From a virus (taxonomy: Duplodnaviria > Caudoviricetes): DNA of 26,466 bases. A model generated the notes under the pieces. It made no database searches. It was not told the origin of the DNA and saw nothing but the letters and a program-made list of their open reading frames with translations. The DNA lies in the IMG/VR virus record IMGVR_UViG_3300032225_001105, positions 1-26,466 of that record; one strand, given 5' to 3'. Of the stretch, positions 1 to 12,880 are shown piece by piece. The position numbers and the translations under genes were made by a program. Each line of letters begins with the position of its first letter. Position 1 is the stretch's first letter.

Positions 1-114
1 GCGATCGACATTCCCGATGTGATGGAGTTTGCGGCGAAACACGGCAGGTGCGTCGTGTCGGTGACTAGCGAGGGATTTCACGACATCGAGATTTACGACG
101 ACTACCGAGAGTAG
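1..114 (+). CDS. 3' end of small phage hypothetical protein (partial; probable cassette gene)
   Basis: Open frame 1 reads AIDIPDVMEFAAKHGRCVVSVTSEGFHDIEIYDDYRE*; TAG at 112-114 sits immediately before the first attC-like site. Confidence 0.7.
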   Translation, partial: AIDIPDVMEFAAKHGRCVVSVTSEGFHDIEIYDDYRE

Positions 115-116
115 AA

Positions 117-172
117 GGCGAACACGCAGGATAAGCGGCGGCTTCGCCGTCCGCTTCATCCGCTGGTTATCC
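117..172 (-). repeat. attC-like site 1 (56 bp)
   Basis: + strand GGCGAAC-ACGCAG-GATAAGC-GGCGGCTTCGCCGTCC-GCTTCATC-CGCTG-GTTATCC; 7-bp and 8-bp L boxes pair with an extra C, plus an extra T further in. Confidence 0.85.
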
Positions 173-173
173 A

Positions 174-557
174 ATGAGCACACGATCACAGTTTGCGTTT
201 GCGGCTCTCGATGCTGGCATCCGCGTCGAGGAGAACCAAGCCGAATGGCTCGGAACGCCGGAGGCTTGCTGGGACGCATACGTTGCGAGCCGGGCGACGG
301 CCACTCGCGACCGGCTCGGGTGCGACGTGTATTGGATCGAGGCGACTTGTGGGAAGCAGACCTACTGGAAGATCGGCATTTCGCACGACGCCGAGAAGCG
401 GATGGAGGACTTCGCAAAGACGTTCCCGATTGCATCGTGGCGGATTCTGCGGACGTGCCGAATGGCGAGGCGGAAGGTAGCCGAGATATGCGAGGCCGAC
501 ATGCTCGTGTCGTGTCGCCACCTGCACATAGACGGGGAATGGATTCGGACTGGATAA
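174..557 (+). CDS. GIY-YIG superfamily protein (T5orf172/MUG113-like), cassette gene
   Basis: VYWI...WKIGIS....KR...GEW motif pattern; ATG just after attC1; stop TAA inside the R box of attC2. Confidence 0.7.
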   Translation: MSTRSQFAFAALDAGIRVEENQAEWLGTPEACWDAYVASRATATRDRLGCDVYWIEATCGKQTYWKIGISHDAEKRMEDFAKTFPIASWRILRTCRMARRKVAEICEADMLVSCRHLHIDGEWIRTG

Positions 558-599
558 CGATGCGATCTGCGGCTTGTCCGCAGCATCGCTTGGTTATGC
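552..599 (-). repeat. attC-like site 2 (48 bp)
   Basis: GGATAAC-GATGC-GATCTGC-GGCTTGTCC-GCAGCATC-GCTTG-GTTATGC; core nearly identical to site 4. Confidence 0.85.
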
Positions 600-625
600 C
601 GGGTTGATTCACACAGGAGAAGACG

Positions 626-850
626 ATGAAACCGGGTGACATTTTTGTTGGCAAGACATACCGCAACAAGGGCGCGGGCAGAACGACTCGCCGTGTGGTT
701 GACATGGGGACGCACTTGCCGCCGCCGCACTGGCTTTCAAACAACCCTCGCCCTGACGAGAGCGTGGTGGAGTTTGTACAGGGCAGGGAGACACACAGGC
801 TGTACCTGTCGTCATTCGCGGCGTGGGCTAATAGAGAAGTTGTGGCATAA
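626..850 (+). CDS. Small hypothetical protein (74 aa), cassette gene
   Basis: AGGAG RBS at 616-620; fills the space between attC2 and attC3; TAA lies in the attC3 R box. Confidence 0.75.
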   Translation: MKPGDIFVGKTYRNKGAGRTTRRVVDMGTHLPPPHWLSNNPRPDESVVEFVQGRETHRLYLSSFAAWANREVVA

Positions 851-934
851 CGCCAGAGATCACAAGCCGCGAACTAGGAGGGCGGCCCACATGAACGATA
901 CGAATGAGCGGTCTTGTGCATCGCGTGGTTCTCG
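845..934 (-). repeat. attC-like site 3 (90 bp), loop contains RBS and ATG
   Basis: GCATAAC-GCCAGA-GATCACA-AGCCGC...GCGGTCT-TGTGCATC-GCGTG-GTTCTCG; same extra C and T; AGGAGG at 876-881 and ATG at 891 inside the loop. Confidence 0.85.
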
Positions 935-1223
935 GCCAGTGGCGTGGGTGGTCGCTCTCGGCGGCGACGGGCTCATCATCGACGGCATCTTCCTGCGGAG
1001 GACGCAGGCGGAGGAAGCGTGTGCTTGGCGGAACGAGCACACCACTTACGGCGCAAGGATCATTCCACTCCACGAGAAGCCGCAGCCAACGCTCACCGAC
1101 GAGGAGCGGGAGGCGTTGTGGTGTGCCGTGTGCGACTACAACAGCATGACGAGAACGCTGGACATGCCGAGATGCGGGAAGATCGGCCCAGCCCTTGCGA
1201 GTCTTTTTGAGCGATTGAAGTGA
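891..1223 (+). CDS. Hypothetical protein (110 aa), cassette gene starting inside attC3
   Basis: In-frame ATG of track ORF 636..1223 with a strong RBS; MNDTNERSCASRGS...PQPTLTDEEREAL; TGA lies in the attC4 R box. Confidence 0.75.
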   Translation: MNDTNERSCASRGSRPVAWVVALGGDGLIIDGIFLRRTQAEEACAWRNEHTTYGARIIPLHEKPQPTLTDEEREALWCAVCDYNSMTRTLDMPRCGKIGPALASLFERLK

Positions 1224-1269
1224 GAACGCCAGCGATCTGCGGCTCGTCCGCAGCATCGCGTGGTTCTGC
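1221..1269 (-). repeat. attC-like site 4 (49 bp)
   Basis: TGAGAAC-GCCAGC-GATCTGC-GGCTCGTCC-GCAGCATC-GCGTG-GTTCTGC. Confidence 0.85.
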
Positions 1270-1327
1270 GGGTCGGTGGTTATAAATCTGTTGGGGTACG
1301 GCGTATTAGATGTAGGAGGACACAGCC

Positions 1328-1558
1328 ATGACCGGAAAGACAGTCACAATCGACCACGCCGAACTACTGCGTATCCGAAGCGCGCTTCACGGCGTGACGC
1401 TTCACTTTCGCGACCTGATGGAAAACGGCTTTCCGAAGCCGCCACGCAAGAACTGCAACGCCGACGCAGGGTCGGCGCATCAGGAATGGCTTGACGAGAG
1501 ATGGCAAACGCTGAACGTGGCAGGCGAAGTTCTCAAGGATACGGAGCACCTATGTTGA
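1328..1558 (+). CDS. Hypothetical protein (76 aa), cassette gene
   Basis: AGGAGGA RBS at 1314-1320 ahead of the ATG. Confidence 0.7.
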   Translation: MTGKTVTIDHAELLRIRSALHGVTLHFRDLMENGFPKPPRKNCNADAGSAHQEWLDERWQTLNVAGEVLKDTEHLC

Positions 1559-1659
1559 TTGCGTGCTGTGGCTGCGCGACTGAAGCAGGTATTTTGGCCG
1601 TCGTAGTGGGCGCGATATTCCTTTTTGCTTTCATTGTTCTTGAGTGCATAAGGATTTGA
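1552..1659 (+). CDS. Putative 35-aa single-pass membrane peptide (not in ORF track)
   Basis: MLIACCGCATEAGILAVVVGAIFLFAFIVLECIRI*; GGAG at 1543-1546; overlaps the previous stop and ends 7 nt before attC5. Confidence 0.5.
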   Translation: MLIACCGCATEAGILAVVVGAIFLFAFIVLECIRI

Positions 1660-1666
1660 GTTTCAA

Positions 1667-1755
1667 GCAGAACACGGAAGATCAACGGCGGCCACCGGAG
1701 GACTCACCATGACACATGACGCAGAAGGGCCGTCCGTTGCATCGGCTGGTTCTGT
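1667..1755 (-). repeat. attC-like site 5 (89 bp), loop contains RBS and ATG
   Basis: GCAGAAC-ACGGAA-GATCAAC-GGCGGCC...GGCCGTCC-GTTGCATC-GGCTG-GTTCTGT; GGAGG at 1697-1701 and ATG at 1709 inside the loop. Confidence 0.85.
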
Positions 1756-2326
1756 TTTGGGTTGCGCAGGAGCAAATGCCAAGGAGCGGCAAATGACCGT
1801 GAACAAGAATCCGATTGGGCGTTACGTCTATGCCTGGTTCAACGACGACAGCCCTTTTCCGTTCTATGTTGGAAAAGGCGTTGCCGACAGGGCCTGGAAG
1901 AGGCACATGCTGAAAGGGCAATCTGCCTTTTGCAACAAGATTCGCTCGGCGTCTTCTAGATTTTGGGTTCACATCGTAAAGGACGGACTTACGAACGAAG
2001 GGGCGATGCTGCTTGAGGCCGCCCTTATCGGCATGTTCTCGGCGATGGGGGGATGCGTTGCCAATCAGGTATCGCCCTTGCGTCGCCAAGAGGTTCCGCC
2101 GCTGTGGCTGCGTGACGTATTGGCTAAGCACGAGCCCGTGAGCCGATTGGTTCAGGACGAAGAATCAGAGGACGGACTTTTGTCCGAGATCATTGACGTG
2201 CTGGACGAAACGGAAGGGCGCGGGGCCTTGTGCCTCACGCCAGGCAGGATCGCAGAAAAACTTGGAGGCCGATACGGGCGCGAACGGATCGTAAACTGCA
2301 TGAAACGCCACGGCCTGAATCCGTAA
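1709..2326 (+). CDS. GIY-YIG nuclease-like protein (LEM-3/Seg-like motif) with possible C-terminal HTH; alternative start 1793
   Basis: YVYAW...PFYVGKG...RA..H...E..LI pattern; second RBS AAGGAG at 1781-1786 before ATG 1793. Confidence 0.75.
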   Translation: MTHDAEGPSVASAGSVLGCAGANAKERQMTVNKNPIGRYVYAWFNDDSPFPFYVGKGVADRAWKRHMLKGQSAFCNKIRSASSRFWVHIVKDGLTNEGAMLLEAALIGMFSAMGGCVANQVSPLRRQEVPPLWLRDVLAKHEPVSRLVQDEESEDGLLSEIIDVLDETEGRGALCLTPGRIAEKLGGRYGRERIVNCMKRHGLNP

Positions 2327-2360
2327 CAGAACCAGTGTTTATGCGGACCCGCATAAACAT
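2326..2360 (-). other. attI-like terminal recombination site or truncated attC
   Basis: ACAGAAC-CAGTG-TTTATGC gives R box, 5-nt spacer and L-like box; perfect 11-bp inverted repeat TGTTTATGCGG/CCGCATAAACA (2336-2359); no extra base and no closing GTT. Confidence 0.55.
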
Positions 2361-2461
2361 CCCCCATGCTGCATATCACGCCATAAAATCGCGCCGCACG
2401 GCCGCGAGGCGCGAAGCCGGGGCGTTATCGTGGTCCGCATAGTACGCCTGGATGATCCCCA

Positions 2462-2608
2462 GTGAGTGCCCACCTGATCGCCCTGACCGGCTGCATCTAC
2501 GCCTACGTCTGCCTTGAGCAGTTCTGGCGTGGCAACGTGCCGATGGCCGTAGCCTACGCCGGGTACGCATTTGCAAATATCGGCCTTTGGTTGCTGGCTT
2601 CTCGGTGA
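2462..2608 (+). CDS. Small hydrophobic phage protein (48 aa; not in ORF track)
   Basis: GTG start; MSAHLIALTGCIYAYVCLEQFWRGNVPMAVAYAGYAFANIGLWLLASR*; two hydrophobic segments; resembles small proteins I recall from aquatic phages. Confidence 0.65.
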   Translation: MSAHLIALTGCIYAYVCLEQFWRGNVPMAVAYAGYAFANIGLWLLASR

Positions 2609-2656
2609 TTCGGCGGCTGTCCATGCCCTCGTAAAATGGGGGTAAGGAGACACGCC

Positions 2657-2764
2657 ATGCCCGCCTACCTCGATGACGAGTTCTTTGAGGAAGTCGATGC
2701 CGAGCTAAGTTCGAGCGAAGGCATCGTGTGCATCGAGTTCCTTGACGGCCCGGCGGGCTACTGA
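2657..2764 (+). CDS. Small acidic protein (35 aa; not in ORF track)
   Basis: TAAGGAG RBS at 2643-2649; MPAYLDDEFFEEVDAELSSSEGIVCIEFLDGPAGY*. Confidence 0.55.
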   Translation: MPAYLDDEFFEEVDAELSSSEGIVCIEFLDGPAGY

Positions 2765-2779
2765 ACACTGGTACACTAG
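2761..2779 (+). promoter_or_regulatory. Putative promoter/operator ahead of head genes
   Basis: CTGAACACTGGTACACTAG contains extended -10-like TGG-TACACT; 15/19 match to 23352-23370; ACTGGTACACT matches 14097-14107 at 10/11. Confidence 0.45.
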
Positions 2780-2818
2780 TGGTAGGGATGCGGAAGCATC
2801 CCGCACCAGGAGCCTCCA

Positions 2819-3037
2819 GTGGCCGACAACTCCGACGTTCTTGACGCAGTGGCGGCGAATCTCGCCCAGCCGAAGCGTGCCCGCACGGACGCCGGCGAAG
2901 TGGAGCAGCACGACCTCGACAAGCAAATTGCGGCCGCCAAGTTCGTGATCGGCAATCGTTCGGCCAGCGGTGGCGCCTTCTCGCCGTTTGCCGCGGTGCG
3001 GCGGGCAAACATCGAACTTCCCGGGGGCTGCGGCTGA
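2819..3037 (+). CDS. Head completion protein, positional gpW analogue
   Basis: 72 aa, AGGAG RBS, stop overlaps the portal start; lambda-like position before the portal. Confidence 0.6.
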   Translation: MADNSDVLDAVAANLAQPKRARTDAGEVEQHDLDKQIAAAKFVIGNRSASGGAFSPFAAVRRANIELPGGCG

Positions 3038-4485
3038 TGGGGCTGCTCTCGTGGTTCAAGAAGCCGGCCGATCTCCGCCAGACGGTGGAATCGCAGCGTA
3101 TTGCCATCACCGAGATGATCCGTGCCCGGTACGACGCGGCACAGACCACGTCGCTGAACACCCGCCACTGGTCGATGGCAGACTTCCTTTCTGCCGACGC
3201 CGCCCTATCGCCGGAGGTTCGCCGGAAGATCCGCAGTCGCGTGCGGTACGAGGTTGGGAACAACTCGTATGCCGCCGGCATGGCAAGCACTTGGGCGCAC
3301 GACCTGATCGGCACAGGGCCGCGGCTGCAGCTCGACCTCGGCCCCGACGTGGACGCCGACCTCTGCCGCAAGGTGGAGCTTGCCGTCTACGACTGGTCTG
3401 TGGAGGTTGACCTAGCGAAGAAGCTGCGCATCGCCAAGATCGCCAAGATCAGTGACGGAGAGGTGTTCGGCATCAAGACGAACAACACACGGCTTGACGG
3501 CGTTCAGCTCGACGTGCGGCTGGTTGAGGCCGATCAATGTGCGTCCCAAAACGGATTTCCGACCGAGCAAGACATTGACGGTGTGGTTTACGACGAGAAC
3601 GGCGTTCCGTCACGCTACTGGATCCTCAAGCGTCACCCAGGCTCAAACTACGCCGGCTGGAACCAAGAAGGCCGCTGGGTGGACGCGAAGGACGTGTACC
3701 ACTGGTTTCACGCCACCCGCCCTGGTCAGCATCGCGGCGTGCCGGAACTTACGCCGGCGATCGAACTGTTTGCCCTCATGCGTCGGTTCACGCTGGCGAC
3801 CGTAACGGCCGCCGAGGTGGCGGCAGACTTCGCGGCGATCCTCAAGAGCACCATGTCGCCAGACCAAGTGGGGGCGGCCCATATCGCCGACTGGGAAACG
3901 ATGCCGGTCGTCCGCGGCATGATGACGGCGATCCCGGACGGCTACGACATCACGCAGATGCGGTCGGAGCATCCCGTTTCCACGCATGACCAGTTTGTGC
4001 GTCGGCTGCTGAATGAGTGCGCCCGTGCCGTCGATATGCCCTACATCGTGGCTGCGATGGACAGCAGCATGGCGAACTACAGTTCGATGCGCGGCGACTA
4101 CTTGGTGTATCGCAAGCGAATCAGCGTTGAGCGGAACGACGTGGAGCGGGTGTTTCTCGACCCGCTTCTCAAGGCATGGCTTGACGAAGCCGCCCTCGTC
4201 GCCGGGCTGATCCCTGACGGCCTGCCGCCGGTTGCTGAGTGGAACTGGTCGTGGTCGTGGGACGGTTTCGACCACGTAGATCCGCTCAAGGAGGCCGAGG
4301 CCGAGGCGGCCCAGATCGGCAACAACACCGCGACGCTGGCGGAGATTTGCCAGCGGCGAAACAAGGACTGGCGTCAAGTGTTGCGGCAGCGTTCTGTCGA
4401 AAAGTCGCTCGAGCGTGAACTTGGGATTGAGCCGGTCGTGAAGACGCCCAGCCCGGCCCCGGCACAGGAGAACGTACCCGCATGA
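3037..4485 (+). CDS. Phage portal protein, lambda family
   Basis: 482 aa; motifs R.R.R...NN.YA, DGEVF, RPGQ.RGVP, NYSS.R, VDPLKE are typical of lambda gpB-type portals. Confidence 0.92.
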   Translation: MGLLSWFKKPADLRQTVESQRIAITEMIRARYDAAQTTSLNTRHWSMADFLSADAALSPEVRRKIRSRVRYEVGNNSYAAGMASTWAHDLIGTGPRLQLDLGPDVDADLCRKVELAVYDWSVEVDLAKKLRIAKIAKISDGEVFGIKTNNTRLDGVQLDVRLVEADQCASQNGFPTEQDIDGVVYDENGVPSRYWILKRHPGSNYAGWNQEGRWVDAKDVYHWFHATRPGQHRGVPELTPAIELFALMRRFTLATVTAAEVAADFAAILKSTMSPDQVGAAHIADWETMPVVRGMMTAIPDGYDITQMRSEHPVSTHDQFVRRLLNECARAVDMPYIVAAMDSSMANYSSMRGDYLVYRKRISVERNDVERVFLDPLLKAWLDEAALVAGLIPDGLPPVAEWNWSWSWDGFDHVDPLKEAEAEAAQIGNNTATLAEICQRRNKDWRQVLRQRSVEKSLERELGIEPVVKTPSPAPAQENVPA

Positions 4486-6365
4486 GCCGCCTTGAACTCA
4501 ACGCCGACTTCAACCTTCTCGCCGCAGACGGCGAGGGCAGCGTCCCCACGTTTGAGATGACCGCCTACACCGGTGCCGCTATCCGGCAGGGGTGGAGTCG
4601 GACGCCGATCGTCGTTGACCTGGAGGGAATGTCGGCTGGCCAGACGACTCCGATCCTCTACGGCCACGGCAAGGAAATGCCGCTCCTTGACTCCGTGATC
4701 GGCAAGGGTTCGCCAACGAACGACGGCAAGCAGTTGATGCTGTCCGGCGACCTGATCGCCGGCGAGCCTGCGAGCGACAAGCTCATCCGGCTGGCCAAGG
4801 CCGGCGTGCCGCTTCAGGCGTCGATCGGGGCGGATGCCCTGTCGTTTGAGAACGTGCCCGCCGGCACGACCGTAACCGTCAACGGCCGCGACTTCGTCGG
4901 GCCGATCAGTGTTGCTCGCCGCACGATGCTTCGTGAAGTGAGCGTGGTTCTGTTTGGTGCGGACGCCAATACGTCCGCGGCTATCGCCGCCGAGGCGAAC
5001 GAGGTTTCACCCATGAGCGATCAGCTCAACGAGACGCCTGTCGATGCCGTCAAGGCTTCGGCGGAAGACACGGCGAGCGTCGCCGTGGAGAAGACCCCGG
5101 CCATCCAGGCCAGCCAGCCGAAGCCGCTGACGGCCGAGGAAATCGCCAGCGTCGTCCGCGAGACGATCAAGGCGGAGCGGCTGCACGAAGTTCGTGCCAG
5201 CCGGCCCGCTGCCCCGGTCCCGACGGAGGCCGACATCCAGGCCCACCGCTCAACCGAGGCGAAGGTGGCGGAGGCCACCCTGTGCATCGTCGCCGGCCTG
5301 CAAAACCTGGAGAAGCACTTCGACGAGCGGACGCTGGAGGCCGCCGACAAGCGGCGTTCCGAGGCTGGCCTGCAGTCGCTTCTCCTTGACGCTGCCCGTG
5401 CGAACGGGTGGAAGGGACACGACCGCAAGGTGACGCATGGCAACGCGAAGGAAATCTTCGCCCATGCGTTCGGGCAGATCCAGGCCACGGGTTTCGCGAC
5501 CCACAGCATCAGCAACGTGCTGGCCGCGACCTACGGCAAGTTCCTTCTGCAAGGCTTCAACGCCGTCGAGAACGTCGCCGACATGATCTCGAACGTCCGC
5601 CCTGTGGCTGACTTCAAGACCGTGACCGGCGTCCGCCTCAACGGTGGTTTTGTGTTTGAGGAGGTTGGTCCCAGCGGCGAGATCAAGTCGGCCGACGCGA
5701 CCGACGAGACTCGGACCCTCAAGGCCAAGCTCTACGGTCGTCTCTCGTCCGTGAGCATGGTGGACATCGTGAACGACGACCTTGGTGCTCTGACCCAGGT
5801 GCCGGTGCGTCTTGGTCGTGGTGCGGCGATCAAGAAGAACATCGACTTCTGGACGGAGTTCCAGGCGTCGAACAGTTCGTACTACCAGGCGGCAACGCCG
5901 GCTGGTGGCAACGCCCTGGCGTTCGCTTCTCTCTCCACGGCGGCGATCGCATACCGGAAGCTCCTGGACACGGACGGCAACCTCCTCGGCATCACGCCCA
6001 GGATCCTGCTCGTCCCGCCCGACCTGGAGCTGACGGCTGCCCAGCTGATGACGCAATCACTGCTCATGTCGTCAAGCCTCGGCTCGACCTCGAGCAAGGT
6101 TGTGGAGCCGACCGCGAACGTGCTCGCCGGCCGGTATCGGGTGGTTTCTTCGGCGTATCTCACCTCCACCTCGACGTGGTGGCTGATGGCCGATCCGAAC
6201 GACCTCCCGGCGATGGAGGTGGCCTACCTCAACGGTATGACCACCCCGGTTGTTCAGCAGGCCGATGCCGACTTCAACCAGCTCGGCATCCAGTTCCGCG
6301 GCTACTACGCCTACGGCGTGGCCAAGGCCGAGGCCCGCTCGACCTACCGCATGGCGACCTCGTGA
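4482..6365 (+). CDS. Fused prohead protease / scaffold / major capsid protein (Mu gpT-like capsid domain)
   Basis: N-terminal AYTG...VVDL.G...H...QASIG...L.EVS.V..GAD..T protease-like domain; C-terminal DFK, GEIK, YGR, IVNDDLGAL, P..LLVP..LE, EVAYLNG...P capsid motifs. Confidence 0.88.
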   Translation: MSRLELNADFNLLAADGEGSVPTFEMTAYTGAAIRQGWSRTPIVVDLEGMSAGQTTPILYGHGKEMPLLDSVIGKGSPTNDGKQLMLSGDLIAGEPASDKLIRLAKAGVPLQASIGADALSFENVPAGTTVTVNGRDFVGPISVARRTMLREVSVVLFGADANTSAAIAAEANEVSPMSDQLNETPVDAVKASAEDTASVAVEKTPAIQASQPKPLTAEEIASVVRETIKAERLHEVRASRPAAPVPTEADIQAHRSTEAKVAEATLCIVAGLQNLEKHFDERTLEAADKRRSEAGLQSLLLDAARANGWKGHDRKVTHGNAKEIFAHAFGQIQATGFATHSISNVLAATYGKFLLQGFNAVENVADMISNVRPVADFKTVTGVRLNGGFVFEEVGPSGEIKSADATDETRTLKAKLYGRLSSVSMVDIVNDDLGALTQVPVRLGRGAAIKKNIDFWTEFQASNSSYYQAATPAGGNALAFASLSTAAIAYRKLLDTDGNLLGITPRILLVPPDLELTAAQLMTQSLLMSSSLGSTSSKVVEPTANVLAGRYRVVSSAYLTSTSTWWLMADPNDLPAMEVAYLNGMTTPVVQQADADFNQLGIQFRGYYAYGVAKAEARSTYRMATS

Positions 6366-10212: not shown

Positions 10213-11280
10213 GTGAACACCATGATTGAACACCTCCACCGAATCGCCGCCCACGCCTACTACGTTGGCGAGGAAGCCGCTGGCCGCCGGGCGTGCGAAC
10301 GCCTGCTGCGGCTTCCACTCTCTCCGGAGAAGGAAGAGAAAGTCCGCAGCAATCGGACCTGGTACACGCAGACGCTACGGGATCTCGGCGTCAACGCCGC
10401 GTTCAAGGCGATTGAAGTCAATCCCGCTGCCCCCGGCTGGTCGCTGTTCAACCCGTCGGTCGTGATGCACCACGGGAGGATGCTGGTCAACGTCCGGTCC
10501 AGCAACTACCGGATCGTGGACGGCCAGTACGTCATGCCGCCGGAAGACAGCCAGACGATCAAGACAAAGAACTGCCTATGGATTCCCGGCCGCGACCAGG
10601 CCACCTACTGGTCGGCCGACTACGAGACGACCGGCTACCCCGTTGAGGGGCTGGAAGACGTGCGGCTCAACTCCGTGGACGGCAGGCTGATCGTATCGGC
10701 TACCGTCCGCAACTGGGCCGGCCTGGACGGCACCTGCCGGATCGGCGTCGGCCGCCTGGACTTGGTCGATCGTATCGACGGGCTGCGTGTTCGCGCCACG
10801 ATCGACGAACGTCACGAAAAAAACTGGATGCCGATCACCGGCAAGAAAGAGTTCCTATACCACTGCAGCCACGAAGGCCGGACGTGCCTCGTGAGTGAAG
10901 AGGATAACGACTGGACCGTGACGGCCCACGCCGAGGCTCCGCCGGTCGCCTGCGGCTTCCGCGGCGGCTCGCAGCTTGTTGAGCACCCGTGGGCACCGGG
11001 CTTGTGGTGGGCGATCGTCCACGAAGTCGCCGTCTCCGGTGGCCGCCGGGTCTACGAGCACCGGTTCGTGACTTTCGACGAGGCGGCGGACTGGAAGATC
11101 GTCAGGGTGTCGCCTCCGTTCGCATTTCACGAATCGCGAACGATTGAGTTCTGTGCCGGCTTGTGCGTGAACGACAGCGACTCGCTGATGGCATCGTTCG
11201 GCGTCAACGACGCAGAGGCGTGGCTGGCCCGCATTCCGATTGCCGACGTGGTCAACATCATGGTGGACGCATGGGAGTGA
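10213..11280 (+). CDS. N-terminal TPR-like helix plus beta-propeller glycoside hydrolase/phosphorylase-like domain (GH130/GH43-like fold)
   Basis: FNPSV, GLEDVRL, EKNWMP, RGGSQ, YEHRF, IEFCAGL, SFGVND motifs. Confidence 0.7.
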   Translation: MNTMIEHLHRIAAHAYYVGEEAAGRRACERLLRLPLSPEKEEKVRSNRTWYTQTLRDLGVNAAFKAIEVNPAAPGWSLFNPSVVMHHGRMLVNVRSSNYRIVDGQYVMPPEDSQTIKTKNCLWIPGRDQATYWSADYETTGYPVEGLEDVRLNSVDGRLIVSATVRNWAGLDGTCRIGVGRLDLVDRIDGLRVRATIDERHEKNWMPITGKKEFLYHCSHEGRTCLVSEEDNDWTVTAHAEAPPVACGFRGGSQLVEHPWAPGLWWAIVHEVAVSGGRRVYEHRFVTFDEAADWKIVRVSPPFAFHESRTIEFCAGLCVNDSDSLMASFGVNDAEAWLARIPIADVVNIMVDAWE

Positions 11281-11831
11281 CGACCTCCGCAGCATGGACC
11301 GAGACCGTCCGCCGTGCCCTTGAGAGCAACTGGCGGGAGGATGATTGGTTCGGCTGCGACAGCCGCGTGATCTTTCACTACGCCATGAAGGGCGAAATCT
11401 TCAAGCGATACCGCCCCAGGCGCGTGATCGAGATTGGCACCCGCTGCGGCTACTCGCTGCTGACGTTCCACAAGGCGTCTCCCGGGGCGAGTTATCTGTG
11501 CATCGACGGGGCGATGGACGCCGACTCCTACGACTGCCTCGCACACTGGCGACGGCTGGTGGAGCGGCACGAGATCGACGCCGACCTGATCGTGGTGGAT
11601 TCGCACGCCATCAAGAGCCTGCCGCCGGCTGACTTCGCGCACATCGACGGGGACCATTCCTACGAAGGTGCCTTGGCCGATCTCCGGCTTGTCGCAGGCT
11701 CCCGAGTGATTCTTGCCGACGACTGCGACAACCAGGCCGTGAAGGCCGCGGTGGAGCAGTTCGCCCGGGATCAGGCGTGCACGGTGGAGTATTTCGATGA
11801 CGGGTTACGAAAGGGGGCGGTGCTGACGTGA
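11271..11831 (+). CDS. Class I SAM-dependent methyltransferase (Methyltransf_24-like); start 11271 or 11277
   Basis: VIEIGTRCGYS, HIDGDHSYEG...DL, DD motifs. Confidence 0.85.
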   Translation: MGVTTSAAWTETVRRALESNWREDDWFGCDSRVIFHYAMKGEIFKRYRPRRVIEIGTRCGYSLLTFHKASPGASYLCIDGAMDADSYDCLAHWRRLVERHEIDADLIVVDSHAIKSLPPADFAHIDGDHSYEGALADLRLVAGSRVILADDCDNQAVKAAVEQFARDQACTVEYFDDGLRKGAVLT

Positions 11832-12880
11832 AGGTTGCCATCTACGCCCTCGCCAAGAACGAAGCCGCCAACGTCAAGCGGTGGGAGGCGTCGTGCCGCG
11901 AGGCCGACTATCGGGTTGTGACGGACACCGGCAGCACGGACGGCACCCTGGAGTTGCTCGGCAACGCTGGGGTCTCGGTGGCTCACGGGGCTCCGATCCC
12001 GTGGCGGTGGGACGATGCCCACAACCTTTCGCTCATGCACGTCCCTGCCGACGTGGACGTGGCGATCCGGCTCGACCTGGACGAAGCCCTGGACCCTGGA
12101 TGGCGTGAAGCATTGGAGCGTGACTGGAAGCCCGAGACGACGAAGCTCCGCTACTGGTACTGGTGGTCGAACGACGTTCGGTTTCGCTGCGATCGGGTTC
12201 ACTCCCGGCACGGATATCGGTGGTCTGGGGCGACGCACGAGGGGCTTTCGCGGTGGTCCGGCGATGAGGTGCAGGCTTACTCCGACGGGCTGGTGATCCG
12301 CCATCACAGGCAGCCCGGGAAGCGGCACGGCACAGACCTTGAGCTGCTACGGCAGGCGGTGCGGGAGAATCCGACCGATGCCAGGATGTCCTGGTATCTG
12401 GCTCGGGAAATGGACTACGCCGGCGACAAGGATGCCGCCGCGGCGTTTGCGTCTTATCTGCGGATGCCGGGCGGGGCTCCTAATGAGCGGGCTTACGCTC
12501 GCCGGGCGTTGACGCGGCTGGATCCGCAAGGGGCCAACTTGCACATGCTGGCCGCCATGCTTGAGGCACCGCTTGAGCCGGAGCCCTACGTTCACGTCGC
12601 CAACCTCGCTTGGAAGAAGCGGGACACCGCGGCCACGTTGCACTTCGCCCGGCAGGCGTTGAACTGCCCTGGCGAAAGCCAGACGCACACAAGCGACCCG
12701 GAATGCTACGGGGATGCTCCGGCAGACCTTGCCTATTCAGCCGCCTACGAGCTGGGCCTGCTTGACGAGGCGCTCGCCTACGCCCGGATTGCGGCGGGGC
12801 GAAACCCCGGAAACCCGCGCCACGCCGCCAACGTGTCGGCACTTGAGAGAATGATTACGGAGGACGGCCCCAAGCCGTGA
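11828..12880 (+). CDS. Glycosyltransferase family 2 with C-terminal TPR repeats
   Basis: IYALAKNE, DTGSTDGT, LDLDE (DxD), THE, R..WYLARE, followed by helical repeats. Confidence 0.88.
   Translation: MKVAIYALAKNEAANVKRWEASCREADYRVVTDTGSTDGTLELLGNAGVSVAHGAPIPWRWDDAHNLSLMHVPADVDVAIRLDLDEALDPGWREALERDWKPETTKLRYWYWWSNDVRFRCDRVHSRHGYRWSGATHEGLSRWSGDEVQAYSDGLVIRHHRQPGKRHGTDLELLRQAVRENPTDARMSWYLAREMDYAGDKDAAAAFASYLRMPGGAPNERAYARRALTRLDPQGANLHMLAAMLEAPLEPEPYVHVANLAWKKRDTAATLHFARQALNCPGESQTHTSDPECYGDAPADLAYSAAYELGLLDEALAYARIAAGRNPGNPRHAANVSALERMITEDGPKP

Follow-up and report, generated by a model that had tools for sequence, protein, structure and literature searches.

The window analysed here, a whole viral record of 26,466 bases whose start falls inside a gene, contains an array of five integron cassettes in which each attC site stands before its gene and the gene lies on the attC bottom strand. 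The array ends in an attI-like site and is probably recombined by the integron integrase (IntI) of a Planctomycetota host. In ordinary cassettes the ORF points toward its own attC, and now and then a single cassette has its gene reversed and supplied with a promoter of its own. No description of inverted phage cassettes was found in the literature searched, which lay mostly outside subscription journals; phage clusters of attC sites lacking an integrase (CALINs) are themselves known.

Anatomy of the array

The array and the genes on either side of it consist of the following features.

1..114, plus strand: upstream gene, 3' end only, truncated where the contig begins; its stop codon lies 3 bases ahead of site 1; no family match
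117..172, minus strand: attC site 1, 56 nt, found by the scanner and scoring 39.8 bits; this body also lies 5' of the same gene in loci L336 and L337
174..557, plus strand: gene of cassette 1 (cassette about 123-557), 127 aa; language-model features class it as T5orf172/MUG113 (GIY-YIG-like, score 0.94); without match in Pfam or PHROG
552..599, minus strand: attC site 2, 48 nt, scanner and 35.5 bits
626..850, plus strand: gene of cassette 2 (about 558-850), 74 aa, with its own ribosome site; stop codon within the next left box
845..934, minus strand: attC site 3, 90 nt, scanner and 52.8 bits; loop with AGGAGG at 876-881 and ATG at 891 on the plus strand
891..1223, plus strand: gene of cassette 3 (about 851-1226), 110 aa; predicted start inside attC site 3, reading through the right arm
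1221..1269, minus strand: attC site 4, 49 nt, scanner and 39.2 bits
1328..1659, plus strand: cassette 4 (about 1227-1672), with a 76-aa ORF (1328-1558), followed by a short hydrophobic ORF that stops at 1659
1667..1755, minus strand: attC site 5, 89 nt, scanner and 51.9 bits; loop with ribosome site and ATG at 1709 on the plus strand
1709..2326, plus strand: gene of cassette 5 (about 1673-2331), 205 aa if started at the attC ATG, 177 aa if started at 1793, where another ATG follows a second ribosome site
2326..2385, minus strand: attI-like site with R box, 5-nt spacer, inverted L box and two further repeats
2462..6365, plus strand: fixed phage genes 3' of the attI-like site (48-aa ORF, 72-aa ORF, lambda-type portal, protease-capsid), without integrase

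All 26,466 bases were scanned with the pattern xxxxAAC-5-L''(8, extra 4th base)-loop-L'(7)-5/6-GTTxxxx. The scanner found five perfect attC sites with the minus strand as top strand and none with the plus strand as top strand; among 500 dinucleotide shuffles of positions 1-2400, 493 gave no site and 7 gave one. Each of the five has the inverted repeats R''/R' and L''/L' with the AAC/GTT core at canonical spacing on the minus strand, and the sites fold as single-strand hairpins with an extrahelical base in L'' and an unpaired central spacer. This bears out the preliminary description, which had placed the 8-bp L box with the extra base and the 5-nt spacer in the right arm on the plus strand at every site, with the canonical order readable on the minus strand and all genes on the plus strand. 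The sequence it quoted for site 4 reads identically, and the ORFs of the window agree with it on the gene strand. It had further described an extrahelical C and T on the coding strand. The C is present in all five sites (plus strand, positions 157, 584, 919, 1254 and 1740); the T, a second unpaired base, forms a bulge in sites 1, 3 and 5, whereas sites 2 and 4 have it in the terminal loop.

Scoring of each strand with an attC covariance model, a check proposed in the same description, gave 35.5-52.8 bits for the five sites on the minus strand and 9.1 bits at best on the plus strand, with a model of 46 host attC sites; as the host loci had been located by a pattern derived from phage sites, the model is in part circular. 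The host attC family shows covariation in 16 of 18 pairs. The strand call of the scanner agrees with the strands used experimentally for phage TJE1 (Qi et al. 2023, PMC9892861). An Rfam search of the window gave no match. CALINs have been defined as two or more attC sites within 4 kb, on one strand, without a neighbouring integron integrase (Cury 2016, PMC4889954). Counted directly against this definition, the array is a CALIN, with five sites in 1.6 kb on one strand and no intI in the record. The intI gene expected beside attI is absent: Pfam and PHROG profiles detected no integrase among the 40 ORFs of the window that were scanned.

The attI-like site is the sixth site of the array, a half site at its gene-downstream end, beyond the part that the preliminary description covered. 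Its R heptamer is complementary to the right heptamer of site 5, and the site is conserved in 21 aligned loci. The layout (R box, L box, accessory repeats, one array end only) is that of an attI site when compared with attI1, for which L and R boxes and two direct repeats have been described (PMC4792948). The pattern, which was fitted to the downstream end, occurred at 43 of 101 gene-downstream array ends and at 0 of 94 upstream ends, and its likeness to host attI is loose. Positions 2326-2385 are a candidate attI that would close the array. The polarities of attC and attI agree, so that only the genes are reversed.

The ORFs at 174-557, 626-850, 891-1223 and 1709-2326 terminate in or on the next left box. 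Pfam, PHROG and NCBIfam provided no firm name for any of the five cassette genes. A lead for the cassette 5 product is a GIY-YIG/LEM-3-like protein (phrog_5356, E 1.6e-6; language-model score 0.87), and the protein had no relative among the viral contigs searched. GIY-YIG-type proteins may be encoded by two of the five cassettes of the window (174-557 and 1709-2326). Small cassette proteins from L001-L187 and the window (1085-1115) have common C-terminal motifs (two motifs, in 35 and 34 of 252 proteins) and varied middles; this suggests that cassette proteins are diversified families assembled between a common attC-encoded start and a common end.

Outside the array, the plus strand of the window has genes for a lambda-type portal, a protease-capsid fusion and a tape measure protein. 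Positions 2329-2657 are common to L001-L003 at 86% identity, and GenBank phages contained nothing that matched the array region. Among the virion genes are one with a methyltransferase domain and one for a glycosyltransferase (11163-12880).

Related phages, Planctomycetota integrons and the integrase

Relatives were collected by a portal search and with three attC patterns, which yielded 187 viral loci on about 150 contigs, some of them near-identical. Together with the window these hold 376 unique attC sites in 183 of the 188 sequences, with mixed orientation in none. The well-supported anatomy of the window is general across many of these phage contigs and is absent in the likely hosts. An ORF filled only the bottom strand in 183 of the 254 segments between sites, both strands in 34, neither in 37 and only the top strand in 0. 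When the 150 longest ORFs of each strand were compared with PHROG (out of 221 on the bottom and 175 on the top strand), 34 from the bottom strand and 1 from the top strand had a match. Among the matches are seven DNA methyltransferases and three HNH nucleases, as well as a Mom-like protein and many phrog_924 members. Calling the strand by the longest ORF was rejected as noisy in GC-rich DNA (host 65 top and 29 bottom; phage 223 bottom and 29 top) and family matches were used; a raw count of flanking genes suffers from the same noise.

The extra base was G on the top strand in 370 of the 376 sites, the presence of an extra base being required by the scan definition. On the called bottom strand the base after AAC was G in 263 of 376, as reported for bottom strands by Bouvier et al. 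2009 (PMC2727003), and folding energy favoured the bottom strand weakly (252 of 376). The arrays occupy several unrelated genome positions, for example after the beta clamp or between terminase and portal.

The long-site pattern, applied to a genome collection, gave 135 stretches in 24 of 64 parts, and 72 of the 78 loci listed were titled Planctomycetota, many of them from one genome. Six loci of the collection (L233, L258, L260, L290, L296 and L314) hold short phage-type cassettes or phage-type cargo; these may be phage contigs binned into genomes, or prophages. With these six dropped, Pfam matches were found for 22 of 73 top-strand host ORFs and 0 of 57 bottom-strand ORFs, as against the 34 bottom and 1 top matches of the phages. 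This contrast in gene direction within one attC family supports the phage-adapted cassette class that the preliminary description had suggested. No phage cassettes were found in true host arrays in a limited sample; the DNA matches (12 of 254) and protein matches (36 of 252) all fell in the six phage-like loci.

The Planctomycetota chromosomal integrons, for whose attC sites a model exists (Ghaly 2021, PMC8352920), share with the phages the attC family, the L boxes, the extra base and a long form of 88-93 nt. They differ from the phages in having the ordinary gene direction, cellular cargo and intI, and their attI repeats differ in detail; the phages, unlike them, also use a short form of 48-58 nt.

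IntI was found over the cut-off in 4 of 5 genomes with this attC family. Three of 7 intI loci showed a family attC, in each case reading away from intI; two of these three have an attI heptamer complementary to the first R''. Five host integron integrases (L320, L321, L322, L325 and L330) have long open frames of 483-627 aa against a model of 315 positions, which hints at an N-terminal extension. Of 100 related viral records, 93 were searched, 30 of these at least 90% complete, and none contained an IntI over the TIGR02249 cut-off; weak matches occurred in 3, and most near-complete records had no candidate. Because the phage group encodes none, the host IntI likely acts on the array, and the attC family points to Planctomycetota as the host.

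The same cassette anatomy could also be served by a recombinase encoded by the phage or a helper. The window record is a fragment whose own genome could encode such an enzyme outside it, and tyrosine recombinase genes flank the arrays in L011, L113, L145 and L160 (4 of 131 flanking proteins), the one in L145 (6838-7968) stopping 9 bases before the first attC. By the cut-off these are not IntI, however, and the attC family is the host's own and adjoins host intI. Together with the scarcity of even weak IntI matches in the viral records, this makes a phage or helper enzyme unlikely, and the host IntI is the enzyme that we favour.

Cassette borders and mobility

Cassette 1 recurs in two other phages with its own upstream attC and with other downstream neighbours, and identity ends at the left AAC box. 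The match to L336, where the cassette adjoins attI, covers 120-558; the match to L337 starts at 120 and is followed by a different attC. Cassette 4 matches contigs of runs X2 and X3 up to exactly 1673, after which the sequence is unlike, and a variant contig of cassette 2 with 19 differences is present in run X3. Runs X1-X4 belong to one study, and X1, from which the window may itself derive, was counted as not independent of it. A joint from 2326 to 1668 in run X2 was considered as an excised circle, but it also fits a neighbouring cassette with a site-5-like body and was not counted. In a 204-kb phage (L338, 2900-3480) the cassette 1 gene is found without an intact upstream attC and the downstream attC is degenerate, so that the locus is either a decayed cassette or a pre-cassette state.

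Across all arrays we compared 36 homologous segment pairs, which are not independent of each other, and dropped 2 that stood in unchanged context. The upstream body was the more similar one in 24 of 34 pairs, in 21 of 28 at a core identity of at least 85% (p 0.013) and in 11 of 14 at a core identity of at least 95% (p 0.057); the downstream body was the more similar in 7 of 28 and 3 of 14, respectively. All seven pairs of at least 98% core identity in different contexts had the upstream body in common (0.83-1.0) and not the downstream body (0.51-0.68), and identity began and ended at the left AAC box, even between unlike bodies. The preliminary description had inferred a crossover at the left box and cassettes composed of attC followed by gene, and had proposed to look in homologous arrays whether a gene travels with its upstream or its downstream body. 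Genes travel with the upstream body, those of the window included, and the break is placed within the common AAC box; the attC-then-gene unit of this array thereby moves from inference to observation. In integrons, crossover takes place at the exact A/C bond of this box.

The heptamers that flank a gene were complementary over 7/7 bases in 205 of 254 segments, and those within a site in 39 of 254. The unit is thus an integron cassette, mobile and with complementary end heptamers at R' crossover points, but not of the typical form, with a gene on the top strand facing its own attC. Heptamer complementarity alone cannot separate the two polarities and was not used for that. Cassettes also move between phages and change places. 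L070 and L075 have the same three cassettes in a different order between unrelated flanks, a reshuffling that does not tell which end receives cassettes. L001, with a portal 98% identical to that of the window, has no cassette gene in common with it at the same place in the genome.

Homologous recombination between phages, with attC serving mainly as a short repeat and no integrase taking part in present-day shuffling, might be put forward for these exchanges. The bodies are highly similar across phages, and the seven of 28 pairs mentioned above break the upstream rule. Chimeric bodies exist as well: in a contig of run X3 a site-5-like left half is joined to a site-4 right half, and a 95% identical copy of the site-5 body stands before a different gene in L001. 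Because of the chimeric contig and the use of bodies by unrelated genes, attC bodies must also be exchanged by other means, and this reuse accounts for some of the exceptions to the upstream rule. However, homologous recombination would not predict that identity ends at the AAC box between unlike bodies, that gene-flanking heptamers are complementary, that the extra base is G on the top strand in nearly all sites, or that an attI-like site is found at one array end only. We consider it quite improbable that this process is the main one and retain recombination by an integrase.

An unusual integrase of mirror specificity, which would use the minus strand and recognise cassettes composed of gene followed by attC, with the hairpin asymmetry alone reversed, is largely refuted by the co-segregation of genes with upstream bodies. 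It would account for the G of the extra base on the minus strand, which is the usual bottom-strand letter, and for the stop codons in the left box, which resemble those of ordinary cassettes. The host arrays, however, share the G on the top strand together with the ordinary gene direction and intI position, and the position of the first extra base, not its identity, selects the strand, a change from G to C costing 2.7-fold (PMC2727003). In addition, a gene whose start lies in the upstream loop would be deprived of it. Such an enzyme is very improbable. Equally hard to credit is a relic, a block taken up a single time from a host integron and no longer active: an integrase is absent nearby and sites have decayed in some relatives (L338), but the relative of 98% identity carries an entirely different set of cassettes at this position, the cargo is of phage type (DNA methyltransferases, HNH, the phrog_924 family) and absent from sampled host arrays, and the arrays lie at unrelated positions.

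Expression, mechanism and relation to known integrons

A ribosome site and start codon were found in long attC sites of phages on the bottom strand in 188 and on the top strand in 8 of 232, and in those of hosts on the bottom strand in 16 and on the top strand in 75 of 252. In 112 of 172 long sites a loop ATG begins a reading frame that is always the same one and stays open up to the next site. Long attC loops are thus predicted to start translation of the following gene. Since the loops supply ribosome site and ATG, the first 14 or so residues of the protein would be encoded by attC. Gene 3 seems to rely on the attC-loop start; gene 5 has the second in-frame start at 1793.

A Pc near attI could not transcribe the cassettes because the genes point towards attI. 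The preliminary description had proposed transcription from a phage promoter at the far end. Flanking genes with a Pfam match are co-directional with the array in 39 of 40 cases, and transcription of the array probably comes from the surrounding phage operon; a far-end promoter, for which this co-direction argues, is the weakest step of the model. No sigma-70 promoter match was found in 1-3100, where 0.8 would be expected by chance. The attI-proximal cassette of L001 (8087-8738) has an AT-rich leader, promoter-like sequence and two small ORFs, and some cassettes may bring their own promoter.

The proposed recombination rules are ordinary ones, since the polarities of attC and attI also agree with those of host integrons, and the reversed part is the gene inside the cassette. 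The host IntI would act on the folded coding strand with a cut in the left AAC box, so that an excised cassette would have the hairpin ahead of its gene. These attC-plus-gene units would insert at the phage attI, and a new cassette would accordingly be added at the downstream end of the phage transcript. If the genes run with replication, the bottom strand might, speculatively, be the lagging-strand template, which favours excision (PMC5371416); GC skew gave no usable replication direction.

That the coding strand is the recombinogenic one, as the preliminary description had it, is indicated by the published strand rule and by the breakpoints, and by an assay of the similarly built array of phage PH101, whose bottom strands were more active with IntI1 (PMC9892861). 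In our own scan, annotated genes of PH101 (L340, 25919-27987) and of MW202573 (L342, 2069-2703) lie on the attC bottom strand, and those of TJE1 (L335) have the ordinary direction. PH101 supports the mechanism and is an unremarked precedent: in the part of the text consulted, its layout is called typical and the inverted genes are passed over, and an attI is not reported in those virulent CALIN phages (PMC9892861). Like the phage CALINs of that study, which often carry DNA methyltransferases, the present arrays are attC clusters without an integrase. They differ from these in their conserved attI-like site, the evidence for shuffling, the loop-encoded starts and a spread over about 150 contigs of one family.

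With class 1 and sedentary chromosomal integrons (PMC2727003; Nivina 2016, PMC5027507) the array shares the R''-L''-L'-R' hairpin with the extra base in L''. Further features in common with ordinary integrons are one polarity per array, a probable bottom-strand recombination point in the R' AAC box, attI at the top-strand 5' end and, as a rule, one gene per cassette. Unlike in ordinary integrons, the bottom-strand genes of the phage array face attI and are preceded by attC, the first extra base is C on the bottom strand, the long loops hold a ribosome site and start codon, and neither intI nor an evident Pc is found by attI. Recombination sites that carry translation signals for a neighbouring gene are known from short ORFs of the ORF-11 type in attC and attI (reviewed in PMC8876359). 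Those are separate top-strand leader peptides, whereas in the phage cassettes the start lies in the frame of the bottom-strand gene that it belongs to and moves along with that gene.

In integron theory the choice of the attC strand is tied to expression from a Pc beside attI. The phage arrays combine the same polarity with the opposite gene layout, and the use of one attC family by phages and their likely hosts provides a natural paired control. Some models of cassette genesis add attC at the 3' end of a transcript. They are hard to reconcile with an attC that holds a start codon and stands 5' of its gene, and the phage cassettes therefore bear on cassette genesis. That process is largely unknown (PMC5371416). 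Tools that pair a gene with its downstream attC would mis-cut phage cassettes.

On balance, we lean towards the wider view that planctomycete phages run an integron system of their own on the integrase of the host. They would have kept only attI and would use mirror-image cassettes of phage genes, in which attC doubles as translation start and which are traded among unrelated phages in a pool apart from that of the host. The inversion would suit phage operons and would leave cassettes silent if they landed in a host integron. The layout offers a testable route by which phages may swap methyltransferases and other accessory genes.
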